From positions 1 through 31,300 of the forward strand of contig CANRNO010000010.1 in assembly GCA_947632065.1 (NCBI GenBank): DNA of 31,300 nt, in the 5' to 3' direction. A model generated the notes under the pieces. That model did not search any database. It saw only the letters and a list, made by a program, of their open reading frames with translations, and was not told the DNA's origin. The stretch comes from an uncultured Bacilli bacterium (GTDB lineage: Bacteria > Bacillota_I > Bacilli_A > RF39 > UBA660). The first letter of the stretch is position 1. Each line of letters starts with the position of its first letter. The translations under genes and the position numbers were made by a program. Below are positions 459 through 5,791 of this stretch, in pieces.

Positions 459-484
459 ATAAGCCATTAAGGAGGGATATGGTT

Positions 485-1759
485 ATGAATAAGAATTTAA
501 AGAAGTTATTGTTAATTGTCTTAGTAGGAATTTTTGCATTTTCTGCATTAAATGTAAGTGCTGCATTTAGTGGTAAAGAGGAAACTACTCGTATTGGGTA
601 TGATATTACACAATTAAATGTATTTATATTTAATGATACAGGAATGACTCAAACTCAAAAAGAAGCTACTGATGGAAATATTAAAAGATTTGAGGTTTCT
701 GGAATTAATTTAAATCCAGTTACTGAAGTTAAAGATGTAGATGGTTACTCTTTAGTTTCTGTTAAACTTAATGCTGATGGTGGTCTTGCTAGATTAAAAG
801 AGACTGCAGAAAATATTGCAAGTACTAACAAGGATTCATTAAGTGGTGGAAGTAATGGAAAATATCTTATTACTTTCTCAGTAAAATATAAACTTGATTT
901 ACCTGAAGGTATTGCTTCTGTTTATGATAGTGATTATGCTAATGTATTTAGTGGAGATCAAAAATTACTAAAAGAAGAAACTCAAGCTAATGCTGGTGCT
1001 GGTTTAGATCAAATGATAATTGCTGGTGTTTATGATTCAAATACTGATACAGTTGATTGGTCTAATCAAGCACAATATACATATCATACTGAAGTTGGAG
1101 ATCATATATTTACATCACGTTCTAATTTAATGCCTGATTTTGATCAATATTTAATATTTGAAAATGTTAAAAAACCTGGGGATCAAGAAATTGGAGATCA
1201 AGCTACATATTCTATGAAATCTAATTATGGTGAAACATATAGATTTATGATGTATGAAAGTGAATTAGGTTCACCAATTCAAGATGAACCAGCAACTGAT
1301 GATCCTTCAGAAAGTCAACCTGGTCAAGATGATCCTGAAATTGTAGATCCTACACCAACTAATCCATCTAATCCAGATGATAGTAAAGATGATAATATTG
1401 ATGATAATAAACCAAGCGATGATGAAAACGATAAGGATAAACCTGAAATTGTAGATCCTGCTCCAAGTGATCCTAGCGATGATGAAGATAATAATAACAA
1501 TGATGTAGTTATTCCAAATGATGATAATAACAATAATGACAATAACAATGATTCTAATTCTGCTGGAACAGGAGATACAGTTGTAACTACTACTTCTTCT
1601 ACTACTAATGGTAATAGTGGTAAAAGTAGTACTGGTCAAACAGTAAGTGTTCCAAACACTGGTGCTAATAGTAATGTAAATATAACTTTATTTGGTATAT
1701 TATTACTTGCTAGTGGATGTGGAATTGTAATGTTAACTAAAAAAGAAAATTCAATTTAG
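485..1759 (+). CDS. Cell-wall-anchored surface protein with VPNTG sorting signal and a D/N/P-rich linker
   Basis: Signal peptide MNKNLKKLLLIVLVGIFAFSALNVSA. C-terminal VPNTG (1649-1663) followed by a hydrophobic stretch and a KKENSI tail. The ORF track starts at 479, but AAGGAGG (469-475) is only 3 nt from that ATG and 9 nt from the ATG at 485. Paralog of 4760-5716. Confidence 0.75.
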   Translation: MNKNLKKLLLIVLVGIFAFSALNVSAAFSGKEETTRIGYDITQLNVFIFNDTGMTQTQKEATDGNIKRFEVSGINLNPVTEVKDVDGYSLVSVKLNADGGLARLKETAENIASTNKDSLSGGSNGKYLITFSVKYKLDLPEGIASVYDSDYANVFSGDQKLLKEETQANAGAGLDQMIIAGVYDSNTDTVDWSNQAQYTYHTEVGDHIFTSRSNLMPDFDQYLIFENVKKPGDQEIGDQATYSMKSNYGETYRFMMYESELGSPIQDEPATDDPSESQPGQDDPEIVDPTPTNPSNPDDSKDDNIDDNKPSDDENDKDKPEIVDPAPSDPSDDEDNNNNDVVIPNDDNNNNDNNNDSNSAGTGDTVVTTTSSTTNGNSGKSSTGQTVSVPNTGANSNVNITLFGILLLASGCGIVMLTKKENSI

Positions 1760-1777: not shown

Positions 1778-2128
1778 TTAATTTTTTGGTTTGAATATAA
1801 CTGCAAATATAAATGAAAAAATTATTGCAGAGGTTATTCCTGATGCTGTTAGATCAAACATTCCCATTACTATACCTAATGGTCCCATTGTTGATGCTTT
1901 AGCAAGTGCTCCATGAATTAATAGATGTCCAAAACTTGTTATAGGAACCATTGCCCCTCCACCTACTACTTCTACTATTTTGTCATATATACTAAAAGTA
2001 TCTAAAGCACTTCCTATTACTACAAAAATACTTGTTATATGTCCTGGTGTTAATTTTGTATTATCAAGAATAATTTGAGCAAGAGCACATATTGCACCCG
2101 CAAATAAAAATGAATTAATTAATAACAT
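1778..2128 (-). CDS. spoVAE: Stage V sporulation protein AE (SpoVAEB-type membrane protein)
   Basis: 116 aa with LTPGHITS...VPITSFGH...SGITSAIIF..FKPK, matching the SpoVAE family. Overlaps spoVAD by 1 nt. Confidence 0.9.
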   Translation of the reverse strand: MLLINSFLFAGAICALAQIILDNTKLTPGHITSIFVVIGSALDTFSIYDKIVEVVGGGAMVPITSFGHLLIHGALAKASTMGPLGIVMGMFDLTASGITSAIIFSFIFAVIFKPKN

Positions 2129-3123
2129 TATTTAGCCTCCAAACTTACTGCATGAGCAATACTTAAAATGTTTTCTTTTTGGAATACTGAAGTTGGTGAA
2201 AACAATGCTCCTGTTGTAATTAAAAGAACTCTTTTTAATTTCTTTTCTTTTAATAATTTATAAACATAACTATAATTTACTAGAGCACTACATACTGGTC
2301 CACTTCCTCCTGCCATTACTTCTGTTTGATTTTCTAAATCATAAAGCATTACTCCACAATCGTTATAATTTTTTGTTGTTAGTTTTATTTTATATTCTTC
2401 TTTTAAATAATCTGTTAAAATTTGTTTACCAAAGTATCCTAAATCTCCTGTTAAAATTAAATCATAATCATCTATAGTTCTATTTAAATCATTTAGATGT
2501 GTTATTAGAGTATCTGCAGCTGCTGGTGCCATGACTGCTCCCATATTATTTGGATCAGTTTGTGCAAAATCTACTATTCTTCCAATGGTTGCACTTTCTA
2601 CTTTAATATCACTTTTTTTATTTGTAAGAAGAATAGATGCTCCACCTGTTGAAGTAAAGGTTGCAGTTTTAGGCTTTGGTCCTCCATATTCTGTTGGATT
2701 TCTAAATTGTTTTTCACTTGTCATATTATGTGAACTAGTAGAAGATATACAATTATTTATTTTTTTACCATCTATTAAACAAGATCCTATTATTACTCCT
2801 TCCATACTGGTTGCACAGGCATTATAAAGACCTAAAAATGGTGTATTCATCCAACTTGATGCGTATGTTGATGAGGTAATTTGATTATTTAAGTCGCCTG
2901 ATAAAACTAATTCTATATCATCTTTTGTTAGATTTGTTTTTTTAAGTAAAATTTGAATACTATCTTTTAACATTCTTACTTCTGCTTTTTCTATAGTTTT
3001 CTCATTACAATATAAATCATCATATTTTTTATCAAAGTATTTTTTTAATGGTCCATTTGCTTCATATGTATTGGTAACTGTAGCAGTATTTTCAACATAA
3101 ACATTATTAAACTTAAAGGTCAT
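2128..3123 (-). CDS. spoVAD: Stage V sporulation protein AD (thiolase-fold DPA-binding protein)
   Basis: 331 aa of the right size, sitting between spoVAC and spoVAE. Thiolase-like motifs are present (NACATS, GGSGPVCSA). Confidence 0.9.
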   Translation of the reverse strand: MTFKFNNVYVENTATVTNTYEANGPLKKYFDKKYDDLYCNEKTIEKAEVRMLKDSIQILLKKTNLTKDDIELVLSGDLNNQITSSTYASSWMNTPFLGLYNACATSMEGVIIGSCLIDGKKINNCISSTSSHNMTSEKQFRNPTEYGGPKPKTATFTSTGGASILLTNKKSDIKVESATIGRIVDFAQTDPNNMGAVMAPAAADTLITHLNDLNRTIDDYDLILTGDLGYFGKQILTDYLKEEYKIKLTTKNYNDCGVMLYDLENQTEVMAGGSGPVCSALVNYSYVYKLLKEKKLKRVLLITTGALFSPTSVFQKENILSIAHAVSLEAK

Positions 3124-3127
3124 TTTA

Positions 3128-3565
3128 TCACTCTCCTATTAATAGTCTAATCATTCCAAAAAACCATGCTGATACTATTCCATATATAATAACAGTTCCA
3201 GCAAGTTTAAACATATTAGCACCTATTCCTGTTACTAATCCTTCTTTTCTATAATCAAGTGCAGCACTTGTCATTGAATGTGCAAAACCTGTTATGGGAA
3301 TTAAAAGACCACATCTTGCATAATTTACTAATTTATCAAAAAATCCTAAGGCTGTACATAAAGATGCAATAAATATTAAAGTAATCATCATATAAGAAGA
3401 AGCTTCACTTCTAGAAATGTGAAATTTATAACAAAATAACTCTATTAATCCTTCTCCTATTACTCCAATTAATCCACCTATTAAAAATGCCATAAAAGCA
3501 TTTAAAGTACGATTTTCATTTGCTTTATACTTATTTACTATTTTTTCGTATTTTTCATTTTTCAT
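3128..3565 (-). CDS. spoVAC: Stage V sporulation protein AC
   Basis: Membrane protein with AFLIGGLIGVIGEG and PITGFAHSM motifs. I prefer the start at MKNEKYE (ATG 3565) because it has a GGTGA SD. The track start at 3613 lies inside the upstream terminator hairpin. Confidence 0.88.
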   Translation of the reverse strand: MKNEKYEKIVNKYKANENRTLNAFMAFLIGGLIGVIGEGLIELFCYKFHISRSEASSYMMITLIFIASLCTALGFFDKLVNYARCGLLIPITGFAHSMTSAALDYRKEGLVTGIGANMFKLAGTVIIYGIVSAWFFGMIRLLIGE

Positions 3566-3579
3566 ATAATCACCAGTAT

Positions 3580-3608
3580 TATTATGAAATAAATAAAAAA
3601 AAATATTC
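3580..3608 (-). promoter_or_regulatory. Possible forespore (sigma-G/F type) promoter GAATA-17-CATAATA
   Basis: On the minus strand, GAATA (3608-3604), a 17-nt spacer, then CATAATA (3586-3580). This fits the GHATR-N17/18-CATxxTA consensus. The predicted transcription start would fall almost on the SD, so confidence is low. Confidence 0.3.
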
Positions 3609-3625
3609 CACAATTTTGTGGAATA
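3591..3625 (-). terminator. Rho-independent terminator after sigF
   Basis: Stem tattccaca / tgtggaata (3604-3625) with a 4-nt loop, followed on the minus strand by a long T-run (plus-strand A-run 3591-3603). Confidence 0.7.
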
Positions 3626-3646
3626 CTTTAATTATAAGTTTTTTTA

Positions 3647-4291
3647 CTAAAGTCTTGTTTTTAATTTTTGAAGAATCTTTTTTTCTTTTCTTGATACTTG
3701 AACTTGATTCATTCCTAAGCTATCAGATATCTCACTTTGTGTTAGATCTTTATAATATCTATCATAAATAATAGATTTTTCTTCATTTGATAGTTTATTT
3801 AACTCTACTTTTAAATCTATAATATCACTATTTAAATTTTTATCTTCTGTTTTTATATAGTTATATAAATTCATTGATGATTCTTCTTGATTATTATCTA
3901 AACTTTCTATTGGACTTGAAATAACTTTAGCCTCTTCTATTAGTTTTTCATCTATTTCTAAGAAGTTTGATAATTCTTTATCTGTAGGTATTCTTTGTAA
4001 TTTTTGACTTAGTACTTCTCTTGCTTTTTCTAATGATTTATTTAACTTCAATAATTCTTTATTTACTTTTATACCACTATTTTCTCTTATATATGAACAT
4101 ACTTCTCCTTTAATATAGAAATATGCAAAAGTAGAAAATTTTGTATCATAATTTTTATTATATTTTGTATATGCTTTAGCGAGCCCTAACATACCTGCTT
4201 GATATAAGTCTTCTTTATCATAATAATTTATATATCTTTTTATAATATCATATACTAATCTTTCATAATCTAATATGCTGTTCATTATCAT
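3647..4291 (-). CDS. sigF: Sporulation sigma factor, sigma-F-like (SigB/F/G family)
   Basis: 214 aa. Region 4 RYYKDLTQSEISDSLGMNQVQVSRKEKKILQKLK is nearly identical in pattern to B. subtilis SigF. Region 2 has FSTFAYFYIKGEV. The gene sits between a STAS gene and the spoVA genes, as in the canonical spoIIA-spoVA synteny. Confidence 0.8.
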   Translation of the reverse strand: MIMNSILDYERLVYDIIKRYINYYDKEDLYQAGMLGLAKAYTKYNKNYDTKFSTFAYFYIKGEVCSYIRENSGIKVNKELLKLNKSLEKAREVLSQKLQRIPTDKELSNFLEIDEKLIEEAKVISSPIESLDNNQEESSMNLYNYIKTEDKNLNSDIIDLKVELNKLSNEEKSIIYDRYYKDLTQSEISDSLGMNQVQVSRKEKKILQKLKTRL

Positions 4292-4300
4292 TATCCTCTC

Positions 4301-4639
4301 TTATATATGTAAATAGTTAAATGCTTCTATTTCATTTGTTATAAATTTTAAATTATCATTTCCACAATCTATTTTTTTAATATCTTCTTTGTTTAAACCA
4401 CATAAAACAACTTTTCCACTAGTAAGACATATTTCAATTAATTTATTTTGAATTTCTGATAATAGTTTTTTATTTTTTATTTCTAAATCATCAAAATTCA
4501 GGACAAAGTAATTCATTCCTTGATTATATAATAAATAATTTATTTCTTTAGAAAATTCACAAAAGTTTTTCTTATCTAGTGTTCCTTGTAAAGTAATAAA
4601 AAGTATTCCTTTATTTACTTTAGTAATTATTTTAAACAT
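4301..4639 (-). CDS. STAS-domain anti-sigma-factor antagonist-like protein (SpoIIAA-like, lacks DSSG phospho-site)
   Basis: 112 aa that aligns by eye with SpoIIAA (VLNFDDLE.., VVLCGLNKEDIKK). It lies immediately upstream of sigF. GGAGGAAAT SD present. Confidence 0.6.
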   Translation of the reverse strand: MFKIITKVNKGILFITLQGTLDKKNFCEFSKEINYLLYNQGMNYFVLNFDDLEIKNKKLLSEIQNKLIEICLTSGKVVLCGLNKEDIKKIDCGNDNLKFITNEIEAFNYLHI

Positions 4640-4692
4640 AATTTCCTCCTTGCATTATCAATATAGAATAAAAATAAAATAATTTATACCTT

Positions 4693-4699
4693 TTCGACA
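4693..4699 (-). promoter_or_regulatory. Spo0A box (TGTCGAA) upstream of the STAS-sigF operon
   Basis: Minus strand reads TTTGTCGAAAAGG, a perfect 7-mer 0A box about 55 nt upstream of the ATG at 4639. Confidence 0.5.
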
Positions 4700-4734
4700 A
4701 AGAATTACAAAAGTTTTAAAAGTCATTTTTCTAC

Positions 4735-4761
4735 AAAAAAAGATTACGAAATTCGTAATCT
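4735..4761 (-). terminator. Rho-independent terminator of the 4760-5716 gene
   Basis: agattacga / tcgtaatct, a 9-bp perfect stem (4741-4761) with a 3-nt loop, followed by a T-run on the minus strand (4735-4740). Confidence 0.75.
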
Positions 4762-5716
4762 AATTTTCTCTTTTCTTTTTTAATTGTAATAATATTATTG
4801 CACTTCCTATCATTAAGATAGAAGATCCAAATAATAATCTTGCAGTGTCATTGGATGCGGTATTTGGTACGTTTATTTTTTGAGCACTTACGTAAGTTTT
4901 TTCTGCTTGTTGTTCTGTTGATTGACTATCATCATTTAAATCAACATCTTCTAAGAAGAAAGGACTTTCTTCTAGATTTGAAATGTCATGCATCATAAAT
5001 CTATATGTTTCTAATCCAGCAGTAATATTTTCATTTTGAAATAACATATATTCATCGAATAATGGTATTTCTAATCCTCTAGAAGTTGCGACTTTAGTAC
5101 TATCATATGTCATTGTAGCACCTTCTGTATCAGAAAAACTTTGTTGCGTTTTATTATAAATTTCTGTATATATCATTTGTTGTAATCCAGGATCACTATT
5201 AGCATCTGTAACATCACTTGGTTCTTGTTCTGTATTAAATACATTTTTGTAATCATAATCACCTATGTGAGTTGTACCATTTGGTAAAGTTTTTAATTTA
5301 TATATTACTGATATAGAACAAAAATAATTTTCTCCTGTTCCACCTGAAAGGCTATCTTTTAGTGCTGTTACTTTTTCTTCTAGTACTTTCTTTAATTGTG
5401 CTTTTCCACCTTCTACATTTAGTTTTACTGTAATAAGTTGTTGTCCTTTTTTCATTGTATATATTTCTGCAGGACTTGGATTTATGGTAATATCATTATC
5501 TATACTTTCTTCCCATAACTTACTATTATCTGCTGATGACTTAAAATCTTTTAATCCTTCATCATTACGTACGAATACACGTATTCCTTCAATTGAATAT
5601 TCTAGTCCTGTTTGTGTATCTTTTCCTGTTCCATTTTTAACTTCTGCTTTGACATTAATTGCAAAAGTAGAAATTAATACTGCTACTATTAATAGTATGT
5701 TTTTAATTTTTTTCAT
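4760..5716 (-). CDS. Cell-wall-anchored surface protein with VPNTA sorting signal (paralog of 485-1759)
   Basis: Signal peptide MKKIKNILLIVAVLISTFAINVKA. Blocks shared with the paralog include SLSGG..Y..S..YKL and ETYRFMM. VPNTA (4856-4870) is followed by a TM segment and KKKREN. Start placed at 5716 (AAGGAG SD), because the track start at 5791 lies inside the promoter. Confidence 0.75.
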   Translation of the reverse strand: MKKIKNILLIVAVLISTFAINVKAEVKNGTGKDTQTGLEYSIEGIRVFVRNDEGLKDFKSSADNSKLWEESIDNDITINPSPAEIYTMKKGQQLITVKLNVEGGKAQLKKVLEEKVTALKDSLSGGTGENYFCSISVIYKLKTLPNGTTHIGDYDYKNVFNTEQEPSDVTDANSDPGLQQMIYTEIYNKTQQSFSDTEGATMTYDSTKVATSRGLEIPLFDEYMLFQNENITAGLETYRFMMHDISNLEESPFFLEDVDLNDDSQSTEQQAEKTYVSAQKINVPNTASNDTARLLFGSSILMIGSAIILLQLKKKREN

Positions 5717-5762
5717 TTTTTTATTCTCCTTTTTAATTATATTATGGTCTACTATTATCTTG

Positions 5763-5791
5763 ATTATAAGGCAGAATAGCAATTTATTCAA
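5763..5791 (-). promoter_or_regulatory. sigma-A type promoter TTGAAT-17-TATAAT
   Basis: Minus strand has TTGAAT (5791-5786), a 17-nt spacer, then TATAAT (5768-5763). Confidence 0.6.

Follow-up and report, generated by a model that had tools for sequence, protein, structure and literature searches.

The window analysed here is a stretch of 31,300 nucleotides (contig CANRNO010000010.1, positions 1 to 31,300, assembly GCA_947632065.1) from an uncultured Bacilli bacterium of the order RF39, family UBA660. It contains a kinase-less form of the spoIIA operon, in which a gene for a SpoIIAA-like STAS protein is followed directly by the gene for a SigF-like forespore sigma factor. In the textbook account of endospore formation, the switch formed by SpoIIAA, SpoIIAB and SpoIIE connects asymmetric division with the first gene expression that is cell-specific. 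Because the kinase, the phosphatase and the phospho-acceptor residue are all missing here, this switch cannot operate, and control of sigma-F by canonical, phosphorylation-based partner switching is precluded. The loss of the kinase and the phosphatase is a trait of the order and not of this particular genome or assembly. The explanation that covers the data best, and that we consider probable, is a kinase-less, Spo0A-driven spoIIA–spoVA locus of a genome-reduced gut lineage, in which the STAS protein serves as a phosphorylation-independent accessory.

The STAS gene (4301–4639, minus strand) encodes a protein of 112 amino acids and ends with a TAA stop codon at 4303–4301. The sigma factor gene (3647–4291, minus strand) encodes 214 amino acids and can start with the ATG at 4291 or with a better-spaced ATG at 4285, giving an intergenic gap of 9 or 15 nt, respectively. 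A gap of this size leaves no room for SpoIIAB, a protein of about 145 amino acids; an earlier, sequence-only reading of the window, which had reported 9 nt and no space for the kinase, was exact in its coordinates. On the same strand, the STAS and sigma factor genes form a compact cluster with spoVAC, spoVAD and spoVAEb, in that order. Four genomes from other families of the class that have canonical operons served as comparators (loci L004–L007). Their gene order is spoIIAA–spoIIAB–sigF, followed by spoVAC in L004 and L006. In the window lineage, a deletion has removed spoIIAB from its place between spoIIAA and sigF.

The STAS protein meets the cut-off of the Pfam family STAS (PF01740) narrowly, with 24.6 bits against 22.6, and stays below that of the spoIIAA equivalog TIGR02886 (24.7 bits against 114.75). 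Its best sequence matches in the PDB are the SpoIIAA proteins of Geobacillus and B. subtilis (1TH8_B, E value 4e-4; 1AUZ). An AlphaFold2 model built from a 31-sequence alignment displays STAS topology, a beta-sheet with four helices, with a predicted local distance difference test (pLDDT) score of 92 and a predicted template modelling score of 0.83. The top Foldseek matches of this model in the PDB are the SpoIIAA chains 1TIL_B and 1TH8_B of the SpoIIAA–SpoIIAB crystal structures, with a template modelling (TM) score of 0.79 and 21% identity. The gene lies directly 5′ of the sigma factor and spoVA genes, as in the canonical loci L004 and L006. On the basis of the PDB matches, the model, the Foldseek results and the gene position, the STAS protein is orthologous to SpoIIAA in both position and structure.

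In SpoIIAA of B. subtilis, the phosphorylated serine is Ser58 of the DSSG motif. The SpoIIAA proteins of the four canonical class relatives all read FMDSSG[LI]G at this site, with both serines present in 4/4. The window protein reads I-K-N-K-K-L-L-S. Residues N56-K57-K58-L59 stand opposite D-S-S-G, and Lys58 occupies the position of phospho-Ser58 at the N-terminus of helix 2. The sequence-only reading had aligned Ser58 with Lys by eye and noted the absence of DSSG; the alignments with 1AUZ and 1TH8 (HMMER) and with the four canonical SpoIIAA proteins (MAFFT), all gap-free at the site, confirm both. The phospho-site columns were tallied over 27 clade members. Serine or threonine is found in none of the 27 at the position of Ser57. 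At the position of Ser58 the residues are K in eight proteins, N, D, G and Y in three each, S and T in two each, and A, R and E in one each. Only 4/27 members thus carry Ser or Thr at this position, and no conserved phosphorylatable residue is present at the motif in the clade. The former phospho-loop differs among all three species of the genus, with an indel. One STAS subgroup keeps the flanking aspartate and glycine (ID..G), which looks like a stepwise decay of DSSG.

The window genome is a metagenome-assembled genome (MAG) of 935 kb in 31 contigs, with an estimated completeness of 85.6% and a G+C content of 26.5%; the window lies on contig 10, and its nearest public relatives are MAGs from rabbit gut. 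Searches with the SpoIIAB profiles (TIGR01925, PF13581) gave nothing over cut-off in this genome. The sole HATPase_c_2/SpoIIAB-like match is a histidine kinase of 338 amino acids whose gene adjoins that of an OmpR-type regulator. The profile of the SpoIIE-type PP2C phosphatase (PF07228) had no match in the genome at E ≤ 10, and no second STAS gene was detected there with Pfam, phmmer or a family hidden Markov model. The sequence-only reading had offered two possibilities, namely that sigma-F control does not use the phosphorylation-based partner switch, or that the kinase and a second STAS protein are encoded elsewhere. The second is not supported by these results, as the genome holds only the histidine kinase, no PF07228 match and a single STAS gene.

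Since the MAG is incomplete, its relatives were also searched. The 24 genomes searched from the same family contained no SpoIIAB over cut-off, and neither did one genome from a second family of the order. SpoIIAB was likewise over cut-off in 0/101 genomes drawn evenly from the order, 100 of which are at least 90% complete, and the same holds for the SpoIIE-type PP2C (0/101). The sigma factor was found in 86 of these 101 genomes. The first possibility is supported, and no spoIIAB orthologue accompanied by a second spoIIAA has come to light. The best SpoIIAB matches within the order (50 bits, in G083 and G103) were considered as hidden SpoIIAB proteins and rejected, being kinases with HisKA and HATPase domains whose genes adjoin those of regulators.

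These searches bear on the possibility that the partner switch is intact, with SpoIIAB and SpoIIE escaping detection because they are too diverged, split or missing from the assembly. The incompleteness of the window genome, the absence of the sigG region from its assembly and the fast evolution of these lineages, in which SigF itself reaches only about half of its NCBIfam cut-off, could be taken in its favour. However, neither protein exceeds its cut-off in a set of 101 mostly near-complete genomes, and the top SpoIIAB-like matches are HisKA-containing histidine kinases beside response regulators. Furthermore, the same profiles score the canonical SpoIIAB at 150–190 bits in the four comparators from other families of the class, which are equally small and AT-rich; one of them has only 0.9 Mb (G030). 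The loss of the phospho-acceptor serine is also what would be expected without an acting kinase. An undetected switch is therefore highly improbable. The comparators resemble the window genome in class, genome size, AT-richness and the order SpoIIAA ... SigF–SpoVAC, and differ from it in keeping a SpoIIAB of 143–149 amino acids and the FMDSSG[LI]G motif. Since these small-genome relatives keep the switch, genome reduction alone does not remove it.

Fin and Gin/CsfB, the other small anti-sigma proteins known from the forespore line, were considered as alternative anti-sigma factors, and neither was found in the genus of the window. Fin (PF10955) was over cut-off in 0/31 genomes, and Gin/CsfB (PF10764) in one genome of the family only. 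The latter match is an open reading frame (ORF) of 69 amino acids scoring 30.6 bits (locus L085; G004:C4:19079-19186). In several relatives a second, short STAS-like ORF of 78–99 amino acids lies away from sigF, and its match to the profile is confined to the N-terminal two thirds (G043:C44:2573-2779, G116:C4:115157-115384, G059:C3:58965-59159, G077:C27:3740-3940 and G054:C8:28370-28582). These ORFs may form a small paralogous family, of which no member was found in the window genome.

The sigma factor carries regions 2, 3 and 4 (Pfam) and is without the N-terminal helix before region 2. Among the NCBIfam profiles it scores 157.5 bits with the SigB/F/G subfamily and 155.8 bits with SigF, against 98–108 bits with SigG. 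All of these scores fall below the curated cut-offs, with SigF reaching about half of the TIGR02885 value of 321.45; the low scores are ascribed to the fast evolution of the lineage. In the alignment with the SigF/SigG profile PRK05572, model position 42 falls on residue 10 of the protein, so that about 30–40 N-terminal residues are missing. This agrees with the shortening of about 40 residues that the sequence-only reading had noted relative to SigF of B. subtilis (255 amino acids). A connection of this shortening with the loss of the switch holds only in part. The SigF proteins of the clade are indeed cut closest to region 2, starting 4–10 residues before its first helix, where the canonical relatives have 10–25 residues more. 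However, SigF of the canonical relatives, which keep SpoIIAB, is itself only 207–241 amino acids long. The deficit against B. subtilis is thus mostly a trend of the lineage, to which this order adds some shortening of its own. A tie between this extra shortening and lost contacts with SpoIIAB would be speculative. No consistent change in the SigF sequence was seen by eye in the genomes that are without the STAS gene.

Downstream parts of the sporulation programme are kept in the window genome. It encodes Spo0A (265.6 bits) and SpoIIR (160 bits), and has a SpoIIGA gene with that of a pro-SigE-like sigma factor behind it, as well as genes for a SigK-like sigma factor with a pro-sequence and for RpoD. 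A second, SigG-like sigma factor is encoded in both congeners (G001 and G002; three species of the genus were compared) and in the majority of the order's genomes, and is not found in the window assembly. A blastn comparison of the 3.6-kb sigG neighbourhoods of the congeners (L044 in G002, L045 in G001) with this assembly gave no match. As the whole neighbourhood is without a match, an assembly gap rather than gene loss is indicated. The idea that one forespore sigma factor has replaced both SigF and SigG was rejected in view of the SigG-like sigma factor in the congeners and most of the order. Two further features were observed in the window genome outside the locus. An ORF of 211 amino acids (G000:C2:77202-77789, L056) matches the SigH profile from end to end with 63.6 bits against a cut-off of 294.8, and may encode a diverged SigH or a fifth sigma factor of the extracytoplasmic function type. 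A possible sigma-F-type promoter, GAATA-N18-CACTATTA, lies in the short gap before spoIIR (G000:C2:5603-6067), at about 1993–2030 of L055 on the minus strand.

It could be argued that sporulation in the order is defunct or repurposed and that the sigF module is a remnant, or serves another developmental or stress programme, so that the missing switch has no consequence for spores. The order has no cultured or observed spore-former, its genomes are of 0.8–1.4 Mb, 15 of the 101 genomes have no sigma factor, and decay is seen in individual cases, such as the sigma factor of 135 amino acids in G062. On the other hand, Spo0A, SpoIIR, SpoIIGA, SigE, SigK and SpoVAC/AD/AEb score at or near the curated cut-offs, and the sigma factor is under strong purifying selection. 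RF39 has moreover been predicted to be spore-forming (PMC10868615). We regard a defunct programme as quite unlikely.

The retention of the STAS gene was assessed in the 30 best sigma factor loci. One of them is cut by a contig end, with the STAS gene of the same genome situated at another contig end, which leaves 29 evaluable loci. A STAS ORF abuts the sigma factor gene in 26 of the 29. The distance from stop to start codon lies between −16 and +12 nt in 21 of the 24 loci in which both genes were measured. Among the 101 order genomes, the STAS gene was found with the family profile in 80, and both genes are present in 76. Four genomes, including G060 and G062, have a STAS gene without an intact sigma factor. 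G060, a genome of 0.7 Mb, has no detectable SigF and an intact STAS protein of 115 amino acids reading IDTSG at the phospho-site (L087, 1010–2414; G060:C24); a gene for a prepilin-like protein of 338 amino acids follows at the place where the sigma factor would be expected. In G062 the operon is in decay (L088, 1689–2977; G062:C52): the STAS frame lacks a usable start codon, the sigma factor is cut to 135 amino acids with region 2 joined to region 4, and spoVAC is kept.

Selection on the two genes was estimated from pairwise ratios of nonsynonymous to synonymous substitution rates (dN/dS) by the Nei–Gojobori method. Within the genus, dN/dS is 0.20–0.29 for the STAS gene and 0.09–0.14 for the sigma factor gene, values to be read with the method being crude at 26% G+C and dS being near saturation in several pairs. 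Nine further pairs gave 0.08–0.58 for the STAS gene, and the top values (0.40–0.58) fall in genus g50, which includes one species without STAS. The mean Kimura distance is 1.56 for STAS, 0.87 for the sigma factor and 0.53 for SpoVAC; STAS thus evolves about 1.8 times as fast as the sigma factor and three times as fast as SpoVAC. The purifying selection suggests that the STAS protein is still functional in the genus of the window. Its role would be non-essential, as roughly one in nine of the related sigF-bearing species does without the gene. The picture is that of a protein selected in most lineages, including this genus, yet dispensable and repeatedly lost.

The main rival explanation is that the STAS gene is a decaying relic, left without a function by the loss of spoIIAB and surviving only by its position before sigF, where it might serve as the leader cistron of a coupled translation. 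STAS is the fastest-evolving gene of the cluster, and its former phospho-loop drifts freely, with the indel within a single genus. Of the 86 sigma-positive genomes, ten from at least six genera have lost the gene (G023, G066, G075, G076, G096, G110, G126, G127, G129 and G046, the last with a SigG-like protein as its sole sigma match); some of the genomes without it belong to genera whose other species keep it, and the whole genus g61, which has a rearranged locus, lacks it. Two STAS genes, in G055 and G117, have an internal stop, and the elevated dN/dS in g50 coincides with a member that has no STAS. However, dN/dS is 0.08–0.30 in most pairs, similar to that of the sigma factor, and an ORF of about 110 amino acids is intact in 76 of the 86 genomes across the depth of the order. 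Conserved blocks outside the loop and a confidently predicted STAS fold (pLDDT 92) argue for a folded and selected protein, and the amino acid sequence would not be constrained if the gene were only a leader cistron. We therefore consider the relic explanation unlikely.

The tight coupling of the two genes, the purifying selection and the retained fold favour an accessory role of the STAS protein on sigma-F. We propose that phosphorylated Spo0A would turn on the transcription of the STAS–sigF pair via two conserved 0A boxes, and that the STAS protein and sigma-F would be produced together by translational coupling. The STAS protein would then most likely act as an accessory of sigma-F that is independent of phosphorylation, either by binding sigma-F directly or by countering a putative inhibitor. 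The downstream cascade would be conventional, leading from SpoIIR through SpoIIGA to SigE and then to SigG and SigK. A more specific proposal is that the Ser-less SpoIIAA now forms a switch of two proteins that works without a kinase. In it, the STAS protein would bind directly to sigma-F or RNA polymerase as a stoichiometric, co-translated holder or chaperone, and release specific to the forespore would take place independently of SpoIIE and phosphorylation. We put this forward tentatively, as possible rather than likely. If it is true, the order would be the first endospore lineage with sigma-F activation uncoupled from the SpoIIE/SpoIIAB circuit.

Several points weigh against the accessory role and the Spo0A-driven locus. 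The ten losses of STAS in sigma-positive genomes and the two internal stops fit a dispensable, possibly decaying gene. The rates of STAS and the sigma factor do not covary significantly when SpoVAC is controlled for (partial Mantel r 0.13, p about 0.10). Fusion proteins of STAS, which would have given a Rosetta-stone link, were not found among longer proteins, although this test is a weak one. The estimates of selection carry the limits of the method given above. The window genome is a single MAG of 85.6% completeness from which the sigG region is missing, so absences in it are weak in themselves and rely on the relatives. The 0A boxes and the translational coupling are readings of the DNA sequence, and, as stated above, no spore-former of the order has been cultured or observed.

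The elements from which Spo0A control and translational coupling are proposed lie close together, all on the minus strand. About 75 nt 5′ of the STAS gene are almost invariant across the three species of the genus, and both putative Spo0A boxes are located here. In B. subtilis the consensus of this box is TGTCGAA. The proximal box (4693–4699) matches it perfectly and is invariant in the three species. The distal heptamer TGTAGAA (4729–4735) is box-like and reads TGTCGAA in G001 and TGTCAAA in G002. The STAS gene has the ribosome-binding site AGGAGG at 4645–4650. That of the sigma factor gene, GAGAGG (4295–4300), adjoins the stop codon of the STAS gene directly, and translational coupling of the two genes is likely from this arrangement. 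A terminator-like hairpin at 4741–4761, with a 9-bp stem followed by a T-run, ends the upstream surface-protein gene and marks the 5′ boundary of the STAS–sigF unit. A second terminator-like hairpin lies 3′ of the sigma factor gene at 3600–3629. With a hairpin on either side, the STAS–sigF pair looks like a self-contained, terminator-bounded bicistron.

The spoVA genes follow on the minus strand. The gene spoVAC (3128–3565) scores 166.3 bits with TIGR02838, which is over cut-off, and translation probably begins at Met17 of its ORF. It is followed by spoVAD (2128–3123; TIGR02845, 420 bits) and spoVAEb (1778–2128; TIGR02839, 135.3 bits). A motif resembling a forespore-type promoter precedes spoVAC at 3580–3608 (minus strand) and reads GAATA-N17-CATAATA, in keeping with the sigma-G/F promoter consensus established in B. 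subtilis. Its equivalent in G001, at the same place, is GGATA-N17-CATACTA. The motif overlaps the 3′ arm and the T-run of the terminator behind the sigma factor gene and may serve as the promoter of the spoVA genes; the possible promoter before spoIIR resembles it. The cluster is flanked by genes for two paralogous cell-wall-anchored surface proteins, at 479–1759 (plus strand) and 4760–5791 (minus strand), with sorting signals of the VPNTG/VPNTA type. A homologous surface-protein gene of 317–343 amino acids also lies 5′ of the STAS gene in the congeners and in the loci L015 and L018. Sortases have been reported absent from RFN20 and ML615J-28 (PMC10868615); surface proteins of the LPXTG type are present in the window genome, which, together with the agreement of its gene content with that survey, points to RF39 as the order.

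Compared with the spoIIA operon and SpoIIE of B. subtilis, Geobacillus and Clostridia, the window locus shares the first and the last gene of the operon. The placement of spoVAC, spoVAD and spoVAEb 3′ of the operon is shared with Clostridia and Turicibacter. The SpoIIAA fold (TM score 0.79), the SigF-type sigma factor, the upstream Spo0A boxes and the set of SpoIIR, SpoIIGA and SigE are as in the B. subtilis-type system. The differences are the absence of SpoIIAB, of the SpoIIE-type PP2C and of the phospho-serine, the degenerate DSSG motif, the sigma factor without the N-terminal helix before region 2, and the direct coupling of STAS and sigma factor. The RsbV–RsbW–SigB system and the RsfA/RsfB–UsfX–SigF system of M. 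tuberculosis also have the gene for a STAS antagonist beside that of a group-3 sigma factor. Both need a GHKL anti-sigma factor (RsbW or UsfX), and none was found here. RsfA of M. tuberculosis provides a precedent, being a STAS antagonist whose regulation does not involve phosphorylation.

In the literature, a single sentence of a survey of RF39 names spoIIAB and spoIIE among the genes that are reduced or absent there (PMC10868615, Microb Genom 2024). That survey is confined to presence and absence of KEGG orthologues and does not mention spoIIAA or sigF; the retained Ser-less SpoIIAA, the selection on it, its repeated loss and the operon structure are not part of it. A related order includes the cultured spore-former Turicibacter, in which SpoIIAA and SpoIIAB are both present (PMC13492147). 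The window locus is confirmed as a real, order-wide variant of the textbook system, of which the bare absence of the two genes was already published.

Since this absence has been noted before and no member of the lineage is in culture, the value of the finding for now lies in defining a testable system and not in a new principle. In an order of abundant gut bacteria, sigma-F, SpoIIR, SpoIIGA/SigE, SigG, SigK and SpoVA have been kept, while the kinase, the phosphatase and the phosphorylation site are gone. The locus offers a natural experiment on the role of a STAS antagonist after the loss of its anti-sigma partner. It implies that sigma-F can be made compartment-specific by other means, or that a minimal sporulation programme needs no cell-specific activation.

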